NCBI GenBank assembly: GCA_020354785.1
Contig: CP070654.1
Location: 2,474,274 to 2,508,004, forward strand
Source: Bacteroidales bacterium
GTDB lineage: Bacteria > Bacteroidota > Bacteroidia > Bacteroidales > UBA10428
Length of the DNA: 33,731 bases
Direction: 5' to 3'
This document shows positions 1,512 through 28,900 of the stretch, one piece after another; position 1 is the first letter of the stretch, and each line of letters starts with the position of its first letter. The position numbers were made by a program, and so were the translations under genes. A model generated the notes under the pieces. That model was not told the DNA's origin, searched no databases, and saw only the letters and a list, made by a program, of their open reading frames with translations.

Positions 1512-4500
1512 ATGAAAAAAACACTTATTATTTTGACACTGATCTTTTTTATCAGTAGTCAGTTACTTGCCCAGCTTGAAATTGGAGGGCAGGTAAAGAA
1601 TGTATCCGGAGAGCCTATACCGGGGGTGAATATCATAATTAAGGGTACCTTGCAGGGAACAGTTACCGATATAGATGGTAATTACTCCCTTTCCGGGGTG
1701 CCGGAAGGCGGAATCCTGGTTTTCTCATATGTGGGCATGTTAAGTGAGGAAGTCAATGTCGGAAACCAGACACGGATTGATCTAACAATGGTGGAGGATA
1801 TTCTTGATATGGAGGGAGTTGTAGTTATTGGATACGGAATGGTGAAAAAAAGGGATTTGACAGGTTCGGTAGCCTCGGTTAAAACAAATGATATAGTGAA
1901 GGCCCCTACCCGTAATCCCCTGGAGGCTATCCAGGGAATGGTGCCGGGAGTTGACATTACCAGGAATTCCGGAACTGCAGGTTCTGGTGCTAATATTGTA
2001 ATTCGTGGTAACAGGTCAATTCACGGCAGTAACAGTCCTTTATTTATTATAGACGGTATTCAGGGAAGTAGTTTCGGGGATCAGGGTGAGACGGTTGAAG
2101 ATCAGGGAAGTGACCTGATAGATTTGAATTCAAATGACATTGAATCAATAGAAGTTTTAAAAGATGCATCAGCGACGGCCATCTATGGTTCACAGGGAGC
2201 AAACGGTGTAGTAATTATTACAACAAAGAAAGGAGCAAGTGGTAAGACAAGGGTTTCTTACAATGGTTATTACGGGATAAACGGGTTAACACAATATCCA
2301 AAAGTCCGGCTTGGTGATGATTATATAGAGATGAGAAGAGAAGCTTATCGTGCAGTTGGCCAGTGGAACGATACAGTGGATGATCCGGAAGATTATTCCA
2401 GGTTATTTCCAAACGGGGATGAGAGGGCAGCTGTTGATTCAGGACAGTGGATTGACTGGCCTGATTTATTGTTTAGAAACGGAACACAGCAAAATCATCA
2501 GTTATCTGTAAGCGGCGGGACAGAAAAAACAAAATCCTATTTTTCAGTTGGTTATTATAAAGAGGAAGGTGTAGTTAGAATGGATGATATGACCCGTTAT
2601 AATGCCCGTTTAAATGTGGATCATATTGTTAATAAATGGATTGAGACCGGTATGAAAGCACAGCTCACATATTATGATCAGAACAGAAGAAAAGATCCTC
2701 TGTCAAAGTCAACCTCAACCACACCTTTGGGTGTTCCTTATGATGAGTATGGTAATATTAATTTATACCCGGTAGCAGGAAGCAGTTCAACCATAAGTCT
2801 GATGACAGATGAGCGTCCTGATATTGCAAAAGATAATACCGTATCAACTAATGTGTTGATTAACGGCTATCTTGATCTGACTCCGGTTAAAGGTCTTACA
2901 TTCAGATCTAACCTTGGTGTAAGTCTGGGTTATAAAAGAAGAGGCATTTACAATGCTGCTACTTCACTGAGCCAGAAAGACCTGAGGTACCCCTCAGCTT
3001 CAATGACCAATGATAATACCAGATTTGTCAACTGGGATAATATACTGACATATTCCGGAGAAGCAGGCGATCATTCATTTACTATTACAGCTATTACAAG
3101 TTATACGCAAAGTGACTATGATGAAGTTTATGCTTCAGGGAACAACCAGGTACTTTCTTCCCAGCTTTATTATAATTTAGGTGCTACAGACGTTGGTGAC
3201 AGGTCTATAACCTCCAGATATGTCGGTACCAGGACTATGTCTTATGCAGGAAGGATCAACTACAGTTACAGGGGTAAATATTTATTAACGCTAACGGAAC
3301 GTTTTGACGGAGCCTCGAGACTAGCCCCCGGTAACCAGTGGGATCATTTTCCTTCAGTAGCAGTTGCCTGGAGAATTAGCGATGAAGGTTTTATGGAGGC
3401 TGTTGAATCTGTTAGCAGCCTTAAGTTAAGACTCAGCTATGGAATAGCAGGGAACTCAGGTATCACTCCCTATGGCACACAAAGCAGTATTTCATACAAA
3501 GCAATGGGATTTGGAGATGAACCGGCTGCTGCCTATGAAATTAATCTTGAAAGAGATATGGTGGGCAATAGTGCCTTAGGATGGGAAAAATCGGCAACAA
3601 TAAACACCGGACTTGATTTAGCTATGTTCAGAAACAGGTTAAGTACTACAGTAGATATATACAGTACTAAAACAACAGATATTCTGCTTGAAAGATCACT
3701 ACCCCAATCCACAGGTGTTCCTAAAGTCTATCAAAATATCGGTAGTACCTTAAACAGGGGGATTGAACTCTCCATTAACTCGGTCAACGTTCATACCAGT
3801 AATTTCAAATGGACCTCTACATTTACTTTTGCCAGAAACAAGGAAGAAATTACAGATTTAATTGAAGGCGAGGATATTATTGATGAGATTGGAAATTCCC
3901 TGATTATCGGGCAGCCAATACATTCATTTTATACATGGGAAAAGCTGGGAATATGGCAACTTGGTGAAGAAGAAGAGGCCGCCCAGTTAACAGGTCCCAT
4001 AACCTTTGAACCCGGTGATATAAAACTGGCCAATCTTAATAATGATACTACAATAGATGCCTATGACAGAACATGTATTGGTGCCGCAGTCCCTGACTGG
4101 GTAGGCGGTCTGCAGAATACTTTTTCCTATAAATCATTAGAACTGAGTATTTATTTATTTGCTCGCTGGGGCCAGATGATAAATGCGGAATTTTTAGGGA
4201 GATATAACCCTAACGGTAGAGGAAATGGTCCTGCAAGTCATGATTACTGGACACCTGATAATCCTACTAATGACTTTCCAAGACCTACCAGAGACGCTGC
4301 CAACATAACTTATTATTATGGTTATCAGACTCTGAATTATGTAGACGGATCATATTTTAAGATAAAAAATATAACTCTCAGTTACACATTACCAGGAAGT
4401 CTTACTAAAAAAGTGCTGATAGACAAGCTCAGAATATATGCGACTGCATCAAATCTGTTTACATATACCAAAAACCATTTGATAAGAGAGTACGATCCTG

Positions 4501-4568
4501 AGAGAGGAGGCTCGGAAAAATTTCCTTTGAGCAAACAAATTGTTTTCGGGCTTAATATAGACTTCTAA
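1512..4568 (+). CDS. SusC/RagA-family TonB-dependent outer-membrane transporter (PUL 1)
   Basis: 1018 aa. Signal peptide, then an N-terminal carboxypeptidase-regulatory-like domain (GQVKNVSGEPIPGVNIIIKGT..GTVTDIDGNYSL), the SusC hallmark VVIGYGMVKKRDLTGSVASV, the plug motif IESIEVLKDASATAIYGSQGANGVVIITTKKG, and a C-terminal beta-barrel ending in F. A SusD gene follows directly. Confidence 0.95.
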   Translation: MKKTLIILTLIFFISSQLLAQLEIGGQVKNVSGEPIPGVNIIIKGTLQGTVTDIDGNYSLSGVPEGGILVFSYVGMLSEEVNVGNQTRIDLTMVEDILDMEGVVVIGYGMVKKRDLTGSVASVKTNDIVKAPTRNPLEAIQGMVPGVDITRNSGTAGSGANIVIRGNRSIHGSNSPLFIIDGIQGSSFGDQGETVEDQGSDLIDLNSNDIESIEVLKDASATAIYGSQGANGVVIITTKKGASGKTRVSYNGYYGINGLTQYPKVRLGDDYIEMRREAYRAVGQWNDTVDDPEDYSRLFPNGDERAAVDSGQWIDWPDLLFRNGTQQNHQLSVSGGTEKTKSYFSVGYYKEEGVVRMDDMTRYNARLNVDHIVNKWIETGMKAQLTYYDQNRRKDPLSKSTSTTPLGVPYDEYGNINLYPVAGSSSTISLMTDERPDIAKDNTVSTNVLINGYLDLTPVKGLTFRSNLGVSLGYKRRGIYNAATSLSQKDLRYPSASMTNDNTRFVNWDNILTYSGEAGDHSFTITAITSYTQSDYDEVYASGNNQVLSSQLYYNLGATDVGDRSITSRYVGTRTMSYAGRINYSYRGKYLLTLTERFDGASRLAPGNQWDHFPSVAVAWRISDEGFMEAVESVSSLKLRLSYGIAGNSGITPYGTQSSISYKAMGFGDEPAAAYEINLERDMVGNSALGWEKSATINTGLDLAMFRNRLSTTVDIYSTKTTDILLERSLPQSTGVPKVYQNIGSTLNRGIELSINSVNVHTSNFKWTSTFTFARNKEEITDLIEGEDIIDEIGNSLIIGQPIHSFYTWEKLGIWQLGEEEEAAQLTGPITFEPGDIKLANLNNDTTIDAYDRTCIGAAVPDWVGGLQNTFSYKSLELSIYLFARWGQMINAEFLGRYNPNGRGNGPASHDYWTPDNPTNDFPRPTRDAANITYYYGYQTLNYVDGSYFKIKNITLSYTLPGSLTKKVLIDKLRIYATASNLFTYTKNHLIREYDPERGGSEKFPLSKQIVFGLNIDF

Positions 4569-4600
4569 TAATATTAAATAATAAATAAACTCAGAATATT

Positions 4601-6352
4601 ATGAAGAATATAAAATATATAATTCAGTCCTGCATGACAGTTTTGTTTATAGCAAGTATGTCATCATGCGAAATAGAAGAATATAATCCCTCAGGAGTTA
4701 CAGCAGATGCTATATGGAGTACACCTGAAGGTTTTCAGACTCTTGTTAATATTGCCTATTCGGACCAGCGTACCTGGTATGGAAAAACAGATGGGCTTTT
4801 TATGTCTGAAACAGGGACAGATCTGTGGTTTAATAAGGAAAAAGACGGCTGGGCAAAAGAAATATCCAAATACGAGGATTTTACTCCTTCAACAGGCAAT
4901 CCGAACAAAGCAACATGGCGTGAAATGAATAAAGCACTGAATTTATGCAATGCGGGTATCGGACGTATAGGTGATGTAGATTTTCCGTCTGAAGAAGTAC
5001 GAAACCAGAAAGAAGGTGAACTGCGTTTTTTAAGAGCATTCTATCTCTGGCATATTGTTGAGACATGGGGAGGTGTAAGTTTAAGAACTGAAGAAACAAA
5101 AGAGCCTGTCCTGACTGCTGTCAGGAGTCAGGTTGAAGATTTCTACGAAGTAATAATGGGAGATCTCGAGTTTGCAAAAGACAATTTACCTCTTGACTAT
5201 GGAGATGAATACAGCCGGGCGACCGTAAAGTCGGCTCTTGGACTCCTTGCAAGGGTATATCTTACAAAGGCTTATCAATTAACAGGTGATCAGGCACTGT
5301 CATATTATACAATGGCCAGGGATATGGCCAAAGAAGTAATAGACAGGCAGGAAGAATTTAATGTTTCATTATGGAATAACTATGCTGATTTATGGAATCC
5401 GAACAACAACAAGGAAAATAAAGAAGCTTTATATGTAGTTAGTAACTCTACCAATACTGCTATAAATTATGACCTTAATGCAAACCGTTTGCACCTGTGG
5501 TTTATTACGGGTTACAGCGGTAAACCGGGTATGCAGCTAAGTATGGAGTACGGTGTGGATGACAGGAGGCGCCTGATGCCAACCTTGCATGTTCTGGATC
5601 TGTTTGATGAGAATATGGACTCACGCTATGAGAATTCTTTCCAGGAAGTATGGCTTTGTAATGACAGTGCTGATATACCGGTATGGACAGCTGAAGAAAT
5701 AGCTGCCGGCGGACTGGATCCGGGTTTAATTGACCAGAATAAATTCGAGTACGGAGATACTGCAATGTATATAACCAGGAAAAGCATTTCTGATGAGAAT
5801 ACACTTGGTTATCTTGTTATTGACAGGGACAGCGTTTATGATACAGCGGGAAATGGAGCCATTCACACGGGAGACGATTATGTGCAGCTTACAAAATACC
5901 TGGACCCGGTAACAAGAACGGATGCCACTTCAAGACCCGGATACCAGGATGTTATTGTAATAAGGCTTGCAGAAATGTATCTTATTGCTGCTGAAGCGGA
6001 ATTCAAGTTAAACAACAGAGCCCAGGCAGCAACTTATATTAATGTTCTCAGGACAAGAGCTGCTAAAAAAACACCTATTGATTACACTCAGGATATGCAG
6101 GTTACTGCCGGTGATATTTCTGTTGAGTTTATCCTTGATGAGAGAGGCAGAGAACTTTGCGGTGAGCATATAAGATGGTTTGATATAAAGAGAGTATTCA
6201 GCAATGATCCTGCGGGTTTTGTTAGCTATATAAAAACCAGAAATCCGGATATTGTTGAACTTAAGGAACATCATATATTGCGGCCGGTTCCGCAAACCGA
6301 GATAGATGCCCTGCTTAATGGTGAAGAATTTGGACAGAATCCGGGTTATTAG
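4601..6352 (+). CDS. SusD/RagB-family outer-membrane glycan-binding lipoprotein (PUL 1)
   Basis: 583 aa. Lipoprotein signal (..FIASMSSC), 32 nt downstream of SusC. SusD-type motifs are present: RAFYLWHIVETWGGV, VIVIRLAEMYLIAAEA, ERGRELCGEHIRWFDIKR, and a C-terminal ..NPGY. Confidence 0.9.
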   Translation: MKNIKYIIQSCMTVLFIASMSSCEIEEYNPSGVTADAIWSTPEGFQTLVNIAYSDQRTWYGKTDGLFMSETGTDLWFNKEKDGWAKEISKYEDFTPSTGNPNKATWREMNKALNLCNAGIGRIGDVDFPSEEVRNQKEGELRFLRAFYLWHIVETWGGVSLRTEETKEPVLTAVRSQVEDFYEVIMGDLEFAKDNLPLDYGDEYSRATVKSALGLLARVYLTKAYQLTGDQALSYYTMARDMAKEVIDRQEEFNVSLWNNYADLWNPNNNKENKEALYVVSNSTNTAINYDLNANRLHLWFITGYSGKPGMQLSMEYGVDDRRRLMPTLHVLDLFDENMDSRYENSFQEVWLCNDSADIPVWTAEEIAAGGLDPGLIDQNKFEYGDTAMYITRKSISDENTLGYLVIDRDSVYDTAGNGAIHTGDDYVQLTKYLDPVTRTDATSRPGYQDVIVIRLAEMYLIAAEAEFKLNNRAQAATYINVLRTRAAKKTPIDYTQDMQVTAGDISVEFILDERGRELCGEHIRWFDIKRVFSNDPAGFVSYIKTRNPDIVELKEHHILRPVPQTEIDALLNGEEFGQNPGY

Positions 6353-22320: not shown

Positions 22321-24297
22321 TTACCCTACAACTAATTTTTCGGTACTGGAAATGCCTGCTGTAATGAACCAGCAAAAATAAATACCACTTTTTACAGGAA
22401 TTCCCTGCGTATCTTTACAATCCCAGGTAACTGAATAATTCCCCGGCATATGAATCTGGCTTACAAGGGTTGCTATTTTTCTCCCTGAAATGTTAAATAC
22501 AGATATTTCAGTATGGCCTGCATTCTGAACGGTATAATAAATATTTGTACTTATATTAAAAGGATTCGGGTAAACACTTAGCGAAGCATCACTGAATACA
22601 ACAGGTCCGGAAATATTGTTTATTGCTGCGGTATCTCTTACAATAGCAGTATCTAAATTAGTTATATGAATATTGTCAAACCAGAAGTATATACCCTTCA
22701 TATCATGATGCTCCGCAACAATTTCAAACCTGTCAACAGCTGCCCAGTCATAATCACCAACCGGGTTGTACCATGCATCATTATACCATGATCCGTGTTC
22801 TGTAAAATCGCTTAAAGGAATATGAACATGATACCATCTTCCGTCCCAATTAGCCAGATTTTCATCTACGGTATATCTTATACGCCAGGGAAGATCATCA
22901 GGATCATCTGTTTTATTATCAATAAAACGAATATCAAATGCTGAACCCGGGTGAGTACCACGTACTATAAAATCAAAGGCATAATCATTTTCAACAAGTT
23001 CAGTAAGGTCTTTAATGGGCCGGAAATCAAATCCAATGTTGTTGTACTGGTTTGCTTTTGTCCAGCTAATGCAATAACTGTCGTTGTTAGGATTATCTTC
23101 AGAACAGAAGTCTATTATTCCGTCTCCGGCATGGCTCGATTCAAAAACTTTATGACATATGTAATCCGTATATATTGGAAAACCGACTGAATCAGGTAAC
23201 AGTACAAACTCTTTCTGTTCCGGTACATTTAATCCTAACGCCCTGACAATAGCAGTATCAATATCGTATTCAAACATATCATTTCCTCCTTCTTCAAAAA
23301 TTCCAAAACCTCCGGTATAATCCCATATTGTCCAGGCTATTTCATTTTCTTCCAGGTATGTACGTACAGTGTCGTACCAGTTAATCCTGTCCTGCCTGGG
23401 GCTGTTAGGGATATAAACACCGAATTCCCCGCAGAAAATCGGAACGTTACGGTTGTTCTTAAATTCCACAGCAATGTCAATCAGCTCTTTTACATGTTCG
23501 ACCGTACCATCCTGACTGTAGCCGTTAAGTGCACTATGTATCCATGTTCCAATTAGCTCGGAAGGACAATCAGGCATGCTGTCAGCATAATAGGGGAATG
23601 GTACGCCGGCAAGTGGTGCCATGGATGGGTCTGTCCAGCTGGCTCCCTGGTGTGTAAACAGGAATGGATCATAAAAATGAAATGTATAAATAAGTTTATC
23701 ATCTTCATAAACCGGCATGTCATCTAAATTATTATAGCTGTTCCAGCCTGCCGGTCCGACAATGATGGTATGTGTTGTGTCCACCTCGCGGATTGCATCA
23801 ATTACATTCTGCTGAATCTCATTCCAAATTGCATCTGAAATACCGTGAGGTTCATTAAGAACTTCATAATATAAATAGTCTGACCTGTTTTTATAATGTT
23901 CCGCCATCTGTGTCCATACCTTTAGTAATATTGATTCGACCTCCGGATCCGTATCTTCAGAAGGGCTAAAAGTATGATTATCAAGCAAAAGATGGATCTG
24001 TAAATCCTCTGCCCAGGTGACTACAGAATCCAGAAATCCGAGAAATAATGGTTCCAGAATATAATCAGGCTCACCGTCAGTCATATAGTGCAGATTTATC
24101 GGCAACCGTATAACATCGCAACCAAGGCTTTTGATGTTTATAAAATCCTGCCTGGTGAATTTTGTAAACTGAATTTGTCCGGCACTGCCGGCCTGAAACC
24201 AGTTTGTGAGATTTACACCCCGGCTGAAGGGAGCCTGGGATATAGTGAATTGTATACATATACTTAAAATAATACTACCAAACACAAATCTTTTCAT
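22321..24297 (-). CDS. Glycoside hydrolase family 5 (endo-glycanase) with an internal CBM-like domain and a T9SS C-terminal sorting domain
   Basis: 658 aa with a signal peptide. GH5 motifs: RGVNLTNWFQ, DVIRLPI, the acid/base motif YYEVLNEPHG, HFYDPFLFTHQG, and the nucleophile motif IFCGEFGV. A beta-sandwich-like domain follows, then the CTD SVYPNPFNISTNIYYTV...ISVFNISGRKIATLV...GNYSVTWD....G..VKSGIYFC. Confidence 0.85.
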   Translation of the reverse strand: MKRFVFGSIILSICIQFTISQAPFSRGVNLTNWFQAGSAGQIQFTKFTRQDFINIKSLGCDVIRLPINLHYMTDGEPDYILEPLFLGFLDSVVTWAEDLQIHLLLDNHTFSPSEDTDPEVESILLKVWTQMAEHYKNRSDYLYYEVLNEPHGISDAIWNEIQQNVIDAIREVDTTHTIIVGPAGWNSYNNLDDMPVYEDDKLIYTFHFYDPFLFTHQGASWTDPSMAPLAGVPFPYYADSMPDCPSELIGTWIHSALNGYSQDGTVEHVKELIDIAVEFKNNRNVPIFCGEFGVYIPNSPRQDRINWYDTVRTYLEENEIAWTIWDYTGGFGIFEEGGNDMFEYDIDTAIVRALGLNVPEQKEFVLLPDSVGFPIYTDYICHKVFESSHAGDGIIDFCSEDNPNNDSYCISWTKANQYNNIGFDFRPIKDLTELVENDYAFDFIVRGTHPGSAFDIRFIDNKTDDPDDLPWRIRYTVDENLANWDGRWYHVHIPLSDFTEHGSWYNDAWYNPVGDYDWAAVDRFEIVAEHHDMKGIYFWFDNIHITNLDTAIVRDTAAINNISGPVVFSDASLSVYPNPFNISTNIYYTVQNAGHTEISVFNISGRKIATLVSQIHMPGNYSVTWDCKDTQGIPVKSGIYFCWFITAGISSTEKLVVG

Positions 24298-24437
24298 CTT
24301 TTATTATTTATAATTATTGCTGTAATTGAAATAAGTTAATATATAATTTACAAAGAATATTTAAAAACTCCAACAGAAGATCTGTCCTTCGCGTTCCGGT
24401 TTATTGCAAATATAATTATTATGCATGGAATAAAATA

Positions 24438-24477
24438 TTTTGTATCATTTTGTAATTTTACCGTCTATAATATAAAA
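24438..24477 (+). promoter_or_regulatory. Putative ECF (SigZ-type) promoter upstream of the sigma factor gene: TTTGTATCATTT-N10-CCGTCTATAATATAAAA
   Basis: The same bipartite motif recurs at 25068-25106 upstream of arsM: 11 of 12 identity in the upstream box, identical 10-nt spacing, and 17 of 17 identity in the downstream box. The downstream box contains the CGTC element typical of the ECF -10 region. It ends 24 nt before the ATG. Confidence 0.55.
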
Positions 24478-24500
24478 AATCTTCTAAAAAGAGTTGAAAT

Positions 24501-25052
24501 ATGACAGATAATATTGAATTAATATGGAAGGATTATCATGATAGATTACTGGCCTTCATACAAAAGAGGGTAAATAACAATAATATTTCTGAAGATATCC
24601 TGCAGGATGTATTTGTTAAAATTCTTACACGGATTAATACTTTAAGAGATACTTCAAAACTTCAGAGCTGGTTGTACCAGGTTACAAGAAACGCTATCTC
24701 GGATTATTACCGTGATAAAGAGAAAGCAGAAAAGATTCCGGCTGGCGTGCTCAAACTGGAATCTGAAGATGAAGATAATATGATGAAGGAAGCGGAAAGC
24801 TGGATAGGATGTCTTGTTAAAGGTTTACCGGATATTTATCGCGAAGCAATAGAACTTTCAGAATTAAAAGGAGTTCCTCAGAAAGATATAGCCAGAAAAT
24901 TAAATATTTCCTATGTTAATGCCAGGTCAAGGGTTCAGAGGGGCAGGAATATGATGAAGGATAAACTTACAGAATGTTGTTTGTTCAATGTTGATGTTTA
25001 TGGAAATATTCTGGATTATAAAGGGAAAGGTAACAAACGAGGGCTTTGTTAA
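24501..25052 (+). CDS. sigZ: ECF-type RNA polymerase sigma factor, SigZ family, with a Cys-containing C-terminal extension
   Basis: 183 aa. Sigma-2 region (DILQDVFVKIL...LQSWLYQVTRNAISDYYR) and sigma-4 region (LPDIYREAIELSELKGVPQKDIARKLNISYVNARSRVQRGR). A ~30-aa tail, TECCLFNVDVYGNILDYKGKGNKRGLC, matches what I recall of the CC-containing tail of the SigZ family. No anti-sigma gene is adjacent. Confidence 0.85.
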   Translation: MTDNIELIWKDYHDRLLAFIQKRVNNNNISEDILQDVFVKILTRINTLRDTSKLQSWLYQVTRNAISDYYRDKEKAEKIPAGVLKLESEDEDNMMKEAESWIGCLVKGLPDIYREAIELSELKGVPQKDIARKLNISYVNARSRVQRGRNMMKDKLTECCLFNVDVYGNILDYKGKGNKRGLC

Positions 25053-25067
25053 AATTGAATTATCAGT

Positions 25068-25106
25068 TTTGCATCATTTATTCCCCTTCCCGTCTATAAT
25101 ATAAAA
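25068..25106 (+). promoter_or_regulatory. Putative ECF (SigZ-type) promoter upstream of arsM: TTTGCATCATTT-N10-CCGTCTATAATATAAAA
   Basis: Second copy of the motif at 24438-24477. It ends 28 nt before the arsM ATG. Confidence 0.55.
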
Positions 25107-25134
25107 GGTACTTAATAATAAAAAAACAATATAA

Positions 25135-25956
25135 ATGAAAAAAAGTAATAATGAAATCAGAGATGCTGTAAGGAAGAGCTATAGAAAAGTAGCGGAAAAT
25201 GCTTTATCAGATAATTATTGTGGGTGCAGTCCCGGTGAAGATACCGGATGTTGTTCACCGGAAGAGACAAATTTGTATGAAGCATCATCCAGAATAGGTT
25301 ATTCAGATAAAGAATTAAAAGAAGTCCCTGAAGGCTCAAACCTTGGACTTGGATGTGGAAACCCGCAGGCAATAGCTGCATTGAAAGAGGGAGAAACAGT
25401 ATTGGACCTGGGCAGTGGTGCAGGATTTGACGTGTTTCTTGCTGCACGCCAGGTAGGAGATAAGGGTAAAGTTATTGGTGTGGATATGACTCAGGAAATG
25501 ATATCAAAAGCGCGTAAAAATGCTGCTATGGGCAACTTTAACAATGTTGAATTCAGGCTTGGAGAAATTGAAAATATACCTGTAGCTGATAATACAGCAG
25601 ATGTTATTATTTCAAATTGCGTCATAAATCTGTCACCTGAAAAGCAGAAAGTATTTAATGAATCGCTCAGAGTGCTTAAACCAGGAGGCAGGCTGGCAAT
25701 AACAGATAATATTACTACAGCAGAGTTGCCTGAGGAGATTAAAAACAACCTTGAACATTATTCGGCTTGCATTTCAGGAGCAGCACTTGTTGGTGAATTA
25801 GAAAATATGCTTAAGAATGCAGGTTTTATTAATATTAAGATTGAGCCTATTGATAAAAGCAGGAAGCTAACAAGCAAATGGATCCCCGGTGGCAATATTA
25901 ATGATTATATTGTTCCGGTAACTGTTGAGGCGGCTAAACCTGAAGGAATAAGGTAA
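25135..25956 (+). CDS. arsM: Arsenite S-adenosylmethionine methyltransferase (ArsM/AS3MT family)
   Basis: 273 aa. The N-terminal Cys cluster CGCSPGEDTGCCSPEE is followed by YSDKELKEVPEGSNLGLGCGNPQAIAALKEGETVLDLGSGAGFDVFLAARQVG.KGKVIGVDMT (SAM-binding motif I), then NVEFRLGEIENIPVADNTADVIISNCVINLSP, VLKPGGRLAITD and HYSACISGA. The catalytic-type cysteines (GCGNP, SNCVINL, ACISGA) are all present. Confidence 0.88.
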   Translation: MKKSNNEIRDAVRKSYRKVAENALSDNYCGCSPGEDTGCCSPEETNLYEASSRIGYSDKELKEVPEGSNLGLGCGNPQAIAALKEGETVLDLGSGAGFDVFLAARQVGDKGKVIGVDMTQEMISKARKNAAMGNFNNVEFRLGEIENIPVADNTADVIISNCVINLSPEKQKVFNESLRVLKPGGRLAITDNITTAELPEEIKNNLEHYSACISGAALVGELENMLKNAGFINIKIEPIDKSRKLTSKWIPGGNINDYIVPVTVEAAKPEGIR

Positions 25957-25975
25957 CCCAACTCTCACAAAATAC

Positions 25976-28900
25976 TTATCCCTTTTTAAATTTTGATAAT
26001 TCTGATTTCAGCCTGCTAATCTCTTTTTTATAGTCTTTCTCTTTTGTTTTAAAATCATCAGACGTTTTTTTGAAATCCTTTTCCCTCCTGCTCATTTCTT
26101 CCTGTGTAGCTTCCATTTCCTCGAGGTTTTGCCTGAGCTCCTCCTCCTGTGAGGTCAGTTCTTCTGTTTTCTGTTTGACCTGATCATACATTTTCTTCAT
26201 ATTCTCGTTAGCCCTTATTGTTGATAATGTTGCAGAAACCATTTCCCCCATTTTTTCGACAAATTCTATTTTGTAAGGTTCAAGTTTTTCAAGTGATGTA
26301 ATCTCCACAACACCCATAACTATTTCGTCAAGTTTTAATGGTACTAGAGCTAAATGTTTACACAGGGTTTCTCCTAATCCGGAAGTAAGTTTAGCATAAT
26401 TTTCAGGAAGGTCATCTACCTGGATAACTTCCTTTTCCTTAAAGCATGTTCCTACCTGTCCTTCACCAACATAAAACTTATTTACTTCTGATTTTTTCTT
26501 TTCATACCCGTAACTTCCTCTCATTTCAAGATATTGCTTTTTTTCATTATCTGAAATAATAAATATTCCTCCCTGGTTTGCCTCCAGATATTCCACAAGA
26601 TTTGAAATCAGAACCTGTGCCAGGGTATTTAGGTCATCTTTATTTTTACTCGTTAAATCACTAAACCTGGCAATTCCTGCATTATACCATTTCTGTACTC
26701 TTTCTTCTTCTTCTTTTTGCTTCAGTGCATTACCCTGCTTCTCAATTTCTTTTTTCTGCTTTTCCAGTTCTTTTTGCCCTTCTCTTATATTCTTTTCCAG
26801 AACCGCTTTATCTTTTTTTACCTGCTGTTCCCTGCGCTTTACAATATAGTAGACAATATATATTATAACAGCTCCTGTTATAATATAAAACAGCCACGTC
26901 CTCCAGAAAGGAGGAATTATTGTTATCTGAAGGGCAGCTCCTTCCTCATTCCATACACCGTCATTATTTGATGCTTTAACCCTGAATATATAATCCCCGG
27001 GATCAAGATTTGTGAAAGATACCTTACGTTCATTTTTAGCATCAATCCATTCATCATTAAATCCTTCCATCATATACATATATCTGTTTTTTTGCGATTG
27101 CCTGTAATTCAGAGCAATATACTCGAAGGAAAAGATATTTTGATTATATTTTAATTCTATATGTTTTGCTACCAGAATATTCGTTTTCAATATAGATTCT
27201 TCACCTATTTCAACATCCTCATTGAATAGCCTGAATCCGGTAATATAGACAGGCGGTTTATACGGATTATCCTGTACTTTCTCGGGATCGAACAGGTTAA
27301 AACCATTTACACCTCCAAACAGGAGTTCTCCTGTAGAAAGCTTGCTGAATGCCCATCTTCCAAACTGGTTACTTTGCAGTCCGTCGCTGGCATTATAGTT
27401 TTTAAACGTAAGACTGTCAGGATTAAATTTGCATAATCCTTCATTTGTACTTAGCCATAAATTTCCCTGGTCATCTTCGAGTATACCCAGGATAACATCA
27501 TTAGGTAAACCGTCCCTCATCCTGTATATTTTGAATGTATTATTTTCCCTGTTAAAAAGATTTAATCCCCCTCCATTGGTGCCAATCCACAGTCTCTTTT
27601 TTGAATCTTCATATAAAGAATATACTGAAGTATTACCAATCCCTCTTGTTTCATTTTCGGTTTCATTTACCTCTCCATAATTAACGAATATGTCTTTGTC
27701 CCTGTCATACATAAAAAGACCTGCTCCTTCTGAAGCTATCCATATATTACCCAGGTAATCTTCAATCATCATAACAGCAGCAGAGGCAGCAAATGAATTT
27801 GTATCATTTTCATCGCTTACATACCTGGTGAAGTTATCTTCCAGCCTGTTATATTTGCTAATTCCGTTTCCCCATGTACAAATCCAGATATCATTTCGGC
27901 TATCTTCATATATATGAAAAATATTATTGTCGCTTAAGGATGATTCATCTTCAGGGTCATAAACATAATGTTTAAACCTGTCGTTATCCGGATTATAAAC
28001 ATTAACTCCGCCACCCCACATCCCAATCCATATTAAACCGTTACTTGCCAGGTGTAAAGCAAGGATTTTATTATTTGTAAGTCCTTCCGGATTATCCGGA
28101 TCAAACATTATATGTGAAAACCTGTTTGTCCCCCGGTCAAGGAAGTTAAGACCCCCTCCGTCTGTTCCTATCCATATATTCCCGTATTCATCTTCTGCAA
28201 AGCTGGTAACGTTATTGTTACTCAGGCTGTTTTCATCATACTTTATCTTCTTATAATGCACAAACTTATATTTCCCCTTATCAAATACACATAGTCCGCC
28301 AAACCTTGTACTTATCCACATACGATTGTTGATATCAAAATAGAGATGTGCAATATCGCTGCTGCTTAAGCTTCCTTCTTCATCCTCTTCCTGGTAGAAT
28401 ACTTTAAAATTATCCTCAACTTCATCATATAAACATAAACCCCCTGATGTGCCAATCCAGATCTGGCCGGATGCACTTTCAGCAATACAATTAATCAGAT
28501 TATTCGGAATGCTGTTCTTATTCGCAGGATTATAAACATAGCGCTTGAATGTACCGTTATCAATATCCATAAGATTAAGTCCCCTGTCAAATGTGCCAAC
28601 CCATAATCTTCCTGTGGAGTCTTTATATAATCGTTGCACCTTATTACCGCTCAGGCTGTGAGGATCACCGGGATCATGCGTGAAATTTGTAAATTTTTCT
28701 TCCCTTTCATTGTACAATGACAGCCCGCCATATGTAGCTATCCAGAACTGATCCTGGCTGTCTTCTATTACATATCTGATAAAATTGCTGGGAAGTGAGT
28801 TAGTGCTGGAAGGATCATTTACAATTAATCTGAATGTCTTGCTTTTTATATCATAAACATTAATACCCTGTTCTGTGGAAATCCATATCCTGTTTTTTGA

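Follow-up and report, generated by a model that had tools for sequence, protein, structure and literature searches.

Bacterial arsenic genes have been described mainly as being regulated through ArsR-type repressors. Which regulator, then, controls an arsM gene that directly follows a sigma factor gene, with no arsR in its surroundings? The question is posed by a 33,731-nt stretch of a Bacteroidales genome (GenBank assembly GCA_020354785.1, contig CP070654.1, forward-strand positions 2,474,274 to 2,508,004; hereafter the window), which carries sigZ, encoding an extracytoplasmic function (ECF) sigma factor, and immediately downstream arsM, encoding an arsenite S-adenosylmethionine methyltransferase. 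An earlier reading of the bare sequence (the original prediction) had proposed that this sigma factor senses arsenite directly, via cysteines in its C-terminal tail and in a WIGCLV motif, and thereby replaces ArsR. Both open reading frames, the tail and the motif read as it had described them, and the two genes share a promoter that is related to one found with SigZ-like loci across phyla. The explanation that we favour on balance is a self-contained two-gene module, in which SigZ would control sigZ and arsM by means of an arsenical switch in its Cys tail.

Paired promoters ahead of sigZ and arsM

The product of the upstream gene matches the SigZ equivalog TIGR02959 over model positions 1-169 of 170, tail included (193.1 bits; cut-off 168.65), and lies just under the cut-off of a second SigZ model (NF007215; 204 vs 212 bits). 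Pfam places Sigma70_r2 at residues 10-74 and Sigma70_r4_2 at residues 102-150; WIGCLV contains Cys104, and the C-terminal end of the protein is TECCLFNVDVYGNILDYKGKGNKRGLC. Matches of its AlphaFold2 (AF2) model to folds in the Protein Data Bank (PDB) were ECF sigma factors, placing the protein within that class. The 273-aa protein encoded downstream is assigned to ArsM on the strength of its family model (NF008823; 351.9 bits, cut-off 263) and its conserved cysteines: among PDB sequences it is most like arsenite methyltransferases, with the Cys residues of its GCGNP, SNCVINL and C-x-GA motifs aligned to those of solved members (PDB 5evj), while N-terminal CGC and CC motifs add further cysteines.

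Upstream of each gene lies one copy of a 53-nt direct repeat, the two copies being 74% identical and spaced 629 bp apart. The copy ahead of sigZ (P-sigZ) comprises a -35-like TGTATCA (24441-24447) and a -10-like CCGTCTA (24461-24467), with the sigZ ATG 33 nt past the -10 box; that ahead of arsM (P-arsM) comprises TGCATCA (25070-25076) and CCGTCTA (25090-25096), with the arsM ATG 38 nt past it. The composite pattern TGYATCA-N13-CCGTCTA matched twice in the window, as compared to 0.06 matches expected from shuffles, and exactly twice in the entire 3.5-Mb genome, ahead of sigZ and ahead of arsM, which bears out the shared promoter motif of the original prediction. Looser versions of the pattern returned no convincing additional target genome-wide. 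The motif predicts a SigZ regulon made up, in this organism, of sigZ and arsM. The same bipartite box stands at the sigma factor gene and at its target and is conserved among orthologues, the arrangement of an autoregulated ECF sigma factor with a group-specific promoter, and SigZ very probably drives its own gene and arsM. Since an Rfam scan of positions 24000-26200 gave no match, the repeated element is not a known RNA. No operator-like palindrome was seen at either promoter, nor any intergenic terminator between or after the two genes (two weak intragenic matches were at chance level).

The genes are separated by 82 bases and are flanked by a gene for a GH5 enzyme and a gene for a large propeller-type sensor. 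As both flanking genes lie on the minus strand, the pair has no co-directional partner able to be an anti-sigma gene, as had been claimed. Equally in line with the original prediction, arsR, acr3, arsB and arsC are all missing from the window. The genome (51,900 masked N; rated 75% complete; genome-wide negatives reported here cover the readable sequence only) does contain acr3 (C1:280952-281980), an ArsC-like gene (C1:773852-774193) and two clear ArsR-like genes (C1:1742367 and C1:2070651), all of them more than 400 kb from the pair. The nearest HTH_5 matches were likewise more than 400 kb off, leaving no arsR in the same operon or adjacent to it.

Some of these distant loci deserve a brief description. 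The single genomic acr3 (L089, C1:279479-283468) belongs to a run of minus-strand genes, in which it comes after a cation-diffusion-facilitator gene and an uncharacterised gene of 183 aa; around it, at a locus that is partly N-masked, we found neither an ArsR gene nor a SigZ box, and acr3 was rejected as a second SigZ target for want of such a box. One ArsR-like gene, encoding an SCCYSGD motif (L094 1408-2453; C1:2070558-2071603), is followed by a gene for a secreted thioredoxin-like CxxC protein resembling genes in the ars cluster of a relative (L108), and the two may be the remnant of a classical ars operon. A box loosely similar to that of SigZ, GCATCGTATTTAAATTTAATTCGTCTT, occurs at C1:2668039 (plus strand), ~165 bp upstream of another ECF sigma factor gene (L085; C1:2668203-2668625). 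It is probably the autoregulated promoter of that sigma factor, and cross-talk between the latter and SigZ may be conceivable.

Conservation, co-inheritance and joint loss of the pair

The original prediction had tentatively mentioned an adjacency of sigZ and methyltransferase genes in other Bacteroidota. This proved right: sigZ was followed by arsM in all eight Bacteroidota homologues with fetched genomic context (51-78% identity), the downstream genes passing the ArsM model wherever tested. Outside the pair, the flanks were otherwise unrelated among these loci. A promoter of the same type was present within the sigZ-arsM gap in seven of the eight, and the box upstream of sigZ was readable in most, including L096-L099 and L117. 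A third gene, the GNAT-encoding arsN2, completes six of the eight cassettes (three GNATs were tested, all scoring above the NF040501 cut-off) and is absent from the window and its two closest relatives. One locus (L099) has an unusually long gap (4556-4907; 352 bp vs the usual ~65-80 bp), owing to an insert of short inverted G/C-rich repeats (cccctaaaggggac..., cccctataggggggtggggg) that resembles a small repeat element, downstream of which the arsM promoter persists.

SigZ turned up in only two of 40 related genomes, and an ArsM above the cut-off in ~20. In the relatives examined, arsM lies within operons of the arsR-arsC-arsM-acr3 type, which agrees with the premise that arsM is normally under ArsR control. 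A maximum-likelihood tree separated two groups of ArsM with 100/100 support, one SigZ-linked (the window, its Bacteroidota relatives and members of five other named phyla) and the other made up of ArsMs from ArsR operons in the order to which the window belongs; the sole exception was L101, a SigZ-linked methyltransferase on the ArsR side. The ArsM of the window shares 50-60% identity with SigZ-linked ArsMs of other phyla, as compared to 35-47% with the ArsR-operon ArsMs of its relatives. Since it is nearer to the former than to those of its own order, the sigma factor and this ArsM clade travel together.

The trace of a loss is seen in G003, a sister species from the same genus. Its corresponding locus (L119, G003:C12:26173-30669) has syntenic GH5 and sensor genes (83-86% protein identity), separated by an interval of 418 bp only (locus positions 1083-1500; window equivalent 24298-25975). 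Sequence from upstream of sigZ makes up part of this scar (89% identity to window positions 24398-24478) and passes, by way of one hybrid promoter, directly into the arsM leader and ~45 arsM codons; after a stop codon come the ~16 codons from the end of arsM. No sigZ is left, and the arsM there is a truncated, internally deleted pseudogene. The structure of the scar is consistent with the product expected from recombination between the two 53-nt promoter repeats and, as we read it, arsM decayed after sigZ had been lost. Three further species of the genus, checked at the GH5-sensor site, held no remnant of the cassette; in seven other genomes of the genus sigZ was found in none, and no arsM was found in six. 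From this pattern of presence and absence, together with the scar, it follows that sigZ and arsM are gained, kept and lost as a unit.

Does the association with arsenic genes extend beyond Bacteroidota? We surveyed contigs from one genome per species and compared 41 SigZ-like loci with 39 ordinary ECF loci from the same search, which served as controls. The SigZ-like loci fell into Bacillota, Chloroflexota, Planctomycetota, Verrucomicrobiota (L022, an Akkermansia muciniphila genome), Lentisphaerota, Pseudomonadota, Acidobacteriota, Nitrospirota and others. Of the 41, 33 had one or more ars-type neighbours within ~4 kb (ArsM, DUF2703, ArsP, Acr3, ArsR, ArsC, ArsI-like glyoxalase or ArsO-like flavoprotein, with Pfam identities checked), as compared to a single control. 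The promoter, GCGTC[CT]TTT-N11-13-CGTC (also written GCGTCCTTTT...CGTCTA), is related to the window box and occurred at 32 of the 41 loci and at no control, on the sigZ strand in 33 of 36 matches. It stands directly ahead of ArsM, DUF2703, ArsP or ArsI-like genes, of small Cys-rich peptide genes, or of sigZ itself. A first pattern built on the -35 box of the window (TGNATC) had almost no matches in other phyla, where the -35 box is GCGTCC, and was widened; the Bacteroidota box, G[CT][AG]TC[AC], is a variant of this general one. Clustering the neighbours of 36 loci yielded no recurrent uncharacterised gene that would fit an anti-sigma factor, extending the absence noted at the window itself.

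Two further types of gene behind SigZ-type promoters were noted. Genes for peptides of 60-130 aa that are very rich in Cys and metallothionein-like directly follow such promoters at L027 (3741-3923), L037 (3729-3932), L032 (3734-3931) and L035 (3547-3945); the L035 product, the one peptide tested, had no Pfam match. On a Priestia megaterium plasmid (L112, NZ_CP137803.1, locus 3915-5528), the SigZ-type promoter GCATCTTTTTTCATTTTATCTCGTCACC faces a divergent aldo/keto reductase gene, an arrangement that may hint at the SigZ regulon of Bacillus subtilis.

The cysteine tail and its relation to known sensors

Which cysteines could form a switch? We counted Cys residues over 154 close and mid-distance homologues and, separately, over 150 representatives of 50%-identity clusters, from a SigZ family numbering ~1,330 such representatives at E ≤ 1e-30 (Table 1). 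The cysteines singled out by the original prediction fared differently: the vicinal pair and the C-terminal Cys are conserved throughout the family, and the WIGCLV cysteine is not. Besides the CC pair, 146 of the 150 diverse representatives possess one or more additional Cys, either in the tail or on the linker helix; mostly, two or three come after the pair. C104 sits on the first sigma-4 helix (modelled helix 89-107). An intermediate homologue at 63% identity possesses C104 and C180 together, which looks like a swap of one thiol for another, as an observation on the alignment only. Whether a tail has three or four Cys showed no association with the kind of gene targeted. The AF2 model of the window protein (mean pLDDT 84.4, pTM 0.70) predicts the tail to be a beta-hairpin (160-164, 170-175) that continues the last sigma-4 helix, with the last five residues disordered; no solved ECF structure was sequence-aligned past residue 158. 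A Foldseek comparison placed the model at an rmsd of ~9 Å from compact anti-sigma-bound forms vs ~21 Å from holoenzyme forms, and was discarded as too weak to use.

Table 1 Features of the sigZ-arsM locus and related cassettes. Positions refer to the window, except those of the third-gene GNATs, which refer to their own loci; Cys frequencies are those among SigZ homologues.
Feature	Position	Strand	Cys frequency	Description
P-sigZ	24425-24477	+		53-nt direct repeat, promoter repeat copy 1
sigZ	24501-25052	+		183-aa ECF sigma factor, SigZ family (ECF238)
C101			58-69%	First sigma-4 helix; Trp in window SigZ
C104	24810-24812 (codon)	+	6% (close), 0% (diverse)	Cys of WIGCLV
SigZ tail	24975-25049	+		Residues 159-183 (CCLFNVDVYGNILDYKGKGNKRGLC); vicinal C159/C160 and terminal C183
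C159			97%	Vicinal pair
C160			99-100%	Vicinal pair
C180			73% (close sample)	Arg in window SigZ
C183			87-91%	Terminal Cys
P-arsM	25054-25106	+		53-nt direct repeat, promoter repeat copy 2
arsM	25135-25956	+		273-aa short-form arsenite S-adenosylmethionine methyltransferase
GNAT, L098	5429-5857			Third gene of cassette
GNAT, L099	5726-6154			Third gene of cassette
GNAT, L115	4457-4954			Third gene of cassette
GNAT, L116	4396-4842			Third gene of cassette
GNAT, L117	4457-4885			Third gene of cassette
GNAT, L118	4474-4929			Third gene of cassette

The As(III) sites of ArsR and ArsD are three-thiolate sites, often with a vicinal Cys pair. In the mechanism that we favour, SigZ would, without an anti-sigma partner, bring RNA polymerase to the promoters of sigZ and arsM, and the switch would be a thiol set made up of C159/C160, at the start of the beta-hairpin tail, and C183, to which C104 on the adjacent sigma-4 helix may contribute in the clade of the window. 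A trivalent arsenical, As(III) or methylarsenite, would bind these thiolates and put SigZ into its active form, which would raise its own level by positive feedback and turn on ArsM, methylating arsenite; as the ligand falls, the system would reset. The identity of the ligand, the residues that bind it, and activation rather than inactivation upon binding are what we infer here. We would give even chances to direct binding of a trivalent arsenical by the Cys tail, a reasonable expectation by analogy, given the genomic context, the conserved vicinal-pair-plus-one thiols and the precedent of CorE.

That precedent, a Myxococcus xanthus sigma factor with a Cys-rich tail and no anti-sigma factor, had been invoked by the original prediction as an analogy. 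The comparison holds, and the relationship is in fact closer than that, as B. subtilis SigZ and M. xanthus CorE2 belong to the same group, ECF238 (PMC7826278); the CorE-like sigma factors formerly made up group ECF44. Because SigZ and the metal-sensing CorE2 are both ECF238 members, the kind of regulator is already known; the short (~20 aa), Cys-containing tail that, along with the lack of a neighbouring anti-sigma gene, characterises the group has itself been suggested as a regulatory element or metal sensor (PMC7826278). In CorE and CorE2, activation by Cu or by Cd/Zn requires the Cys-rich tail as well as a CxC motif within the linker, and a single Cys change moves CorE2's specificity from Cd/Zn to Cu (PMC4937300). 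Autoregulation of CorE is reported to be only partial, and metals are reported not to induce corE2 (PMC4937300). The function of B. subtilis SigZ (ECF238 subgroup 9), which has no known anti-sigma factor, has been very little studied (PMC7826278).

Like CorE and CorE2, the SigZ of the window is an ECF sigma factor with a short, Cys-containing C-terminal extension, a Cys near the sigma-2/sigma-4 junction and no adjacent candidate for an anti-sigma gene, and like them it would regulate a handful of adjacent detoxification genes. The thiols differ: the tails of CorE and CorE2, 28-38 residues long, hold six Cys, to which the linker adds an essential CxC, whereas the window protein has three (C159, C160 and C183) in 25 residues and, in place of CxC, the single C104, the family mostly having the single C101. 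CorE and CorE2 respond to Cu or Cd/Zn and control metal pumps and oxidases; here the target is ArsM, in the arsenic context of the family, and sigZ has the same promoter as its target. B. subtilis SigZ and the window protein resemble each other in lacking a known anti-sigma factor, and the latter passes the SigZ equivalog model at full length. The Bacillus-type SigZ of L112, by contrast, has the CC pair and no later tail Cys, lacks ars neighbours and has its promoter pointing towards the aldo/keto reductase gene. With regulators of the ArsR/SmtB type, SigZ would have in common the job, arsenic-dependent control of arsM, and a three-thiolate As(III) site that includes a vicinal pair. The logic would be different, since ArsR acts by repression and derepression at an operator, while SigZ would exert positive control by promoter recognition with feedback, and same-order relatives combine their arsR-arsC-arsM-acr3 operons with a different ArsM clade.

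New here is therefore the link to arsenic alone, the idea of a Cys-tail metal sensor in ECF238 having been proposed before. The searchable literature, subscription journals aside, yielded nothing linking the SigZ family to arsenic, to its conserved promoter or to an ArsM partner. The window contributes the module in its minimal form of two genes, a thiol set of the C104/R180 type, the difference from ArsR operons within the same order, and the deletion in the sister species.

Competing explanations and biological meaning

Several observations weigh against an arsenical switch. Eight of the 41 SigZ-like loci have no ars-type neighbour, so the family is not exclusively linked to arsenic: no ars genes lie near the sigZ of the P. 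megaterium plasmid, and several gammaproteobacterial loci have only small Cys-rich peptides behind the SigZ promoter. The count of 33 loci with such neighbours was itself obtained with a query set picked from the same loci, related ones being non-independent samples. C104 is confined to homologues of the window's clade at ≥74% identity and to P0009 at 63%, and the CC plus CxxC of most members could equally be a four-Cys zinc site. The replacement of ArsR by SigZ, as originally predicted, agrees with the surroundings of the window pair; across the family it needs qualifying, given that ArsR-like genes occur within ~4 kb at seven of the 41 loci (in L001, within the same operon) and elsewhere in the genome of the window.

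These points lend themselves to other explanations. We regard it as unlikely that SigZ is a general soft-metal or thiol/redox sensor, whose tail holds zinc or forms disulfides, which any thiol-reactive agent (Cd, Cu, Sb, electrophiles or oxidants) would flip, and for which arsM is one of several outputs. Such a role would suit the Cd and Zn response of the characterised ECF238 member, which a single Cys change turns towards Cu; the four thiols that flank the hairpin in the commonest tail, CC plus CxxC; and those SigZ promoters that drive small Cys-rich peptides or the aldo/keto reductase instead of ars genes. Yet the genes that accompany the family at 33 of 41 loci are arsenic-specific (ArsM, ArsP, ArsI-like, ArsN2, Acr3, DUF2703) and not metal pumps, the sigma factor is accompanied by an ArsM clade of its own, and SigZ of the window and its clade have just three tail cysteines plus C104. 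Distinctly unlikely, in our estimate, is a non-sensing SigZ that merely amplifies its own expression, its amount or activity being governed from elsewhere, whether by a repressor of the ArsR type, an unlinked anti-sigma factor or a further promoter, and its Cys tail being a structural metal knuckle. A positive-feedback promoter does require another source of basal expression, and the ArsR-like genes near sigZ at some loci, as well as the two in the genome of the window, could be seen in this light. Against this, neither promoter is overlapped by an operator-like palindrome, neighbour clustering gave no recurrent anti-sigma candidate, and the bare sigZ-arsM pair moves into unrelated flanks, which favours a self-sufficient cassette.

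The methyltransferase, too, could be something else, and the divergence of the SigZ-linked clade from the same-order ArsR-operon ArsMs (only 35-47% identity) leaves room for a main activity on another metalloid or thiol compound, in which case the module would not be an arsenic system here. We consider this very unlikely, as the protein exceeds the NF008823 cut-off (352 vs 263 bits), its cysteines align with those of solved arsenite methyltransferases, arsN2 forms part of sister cassettes, and clusters with ArsP, ArsI-like genes or Acr3 are under SigZ promoters in other phyla. A broader version of the arsenical switch that we favour, put forward tentatively and with slightly less than even chances, would have SigZ-type ECF sigma factors of many phyla be one-component sensors of trivalent arsenicals that need no anti-sigma factor, in which the CC pair and the C-terminal Cys form a three-thiolate site that directly gates promoter recognition, the whole travelling as a mobile cassette that brings an ArsM clade and a promoter of its own.

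The compact set of sigma factor and promoter could serve as an orthogonal arsenic biosensor part. For the interpretation of arsM in metagenomes, including those genes in gut and environmental Bacteroidota and in the Akkermansia genome, the finding is of relevance because arsM genes of the SigZ-linked clade bring their own switch. If SigZ does sense arsenic, it would provide a function for a family whose study since its naming in B. subtilis has been 'very limited', and its members would be the first known case of sigma factors that a metalloid switches. Beside ArsR there would then be a second route of arsenic regulation, one that follows a different logic: positive control that is self-amplifying and portable together with its promoter.

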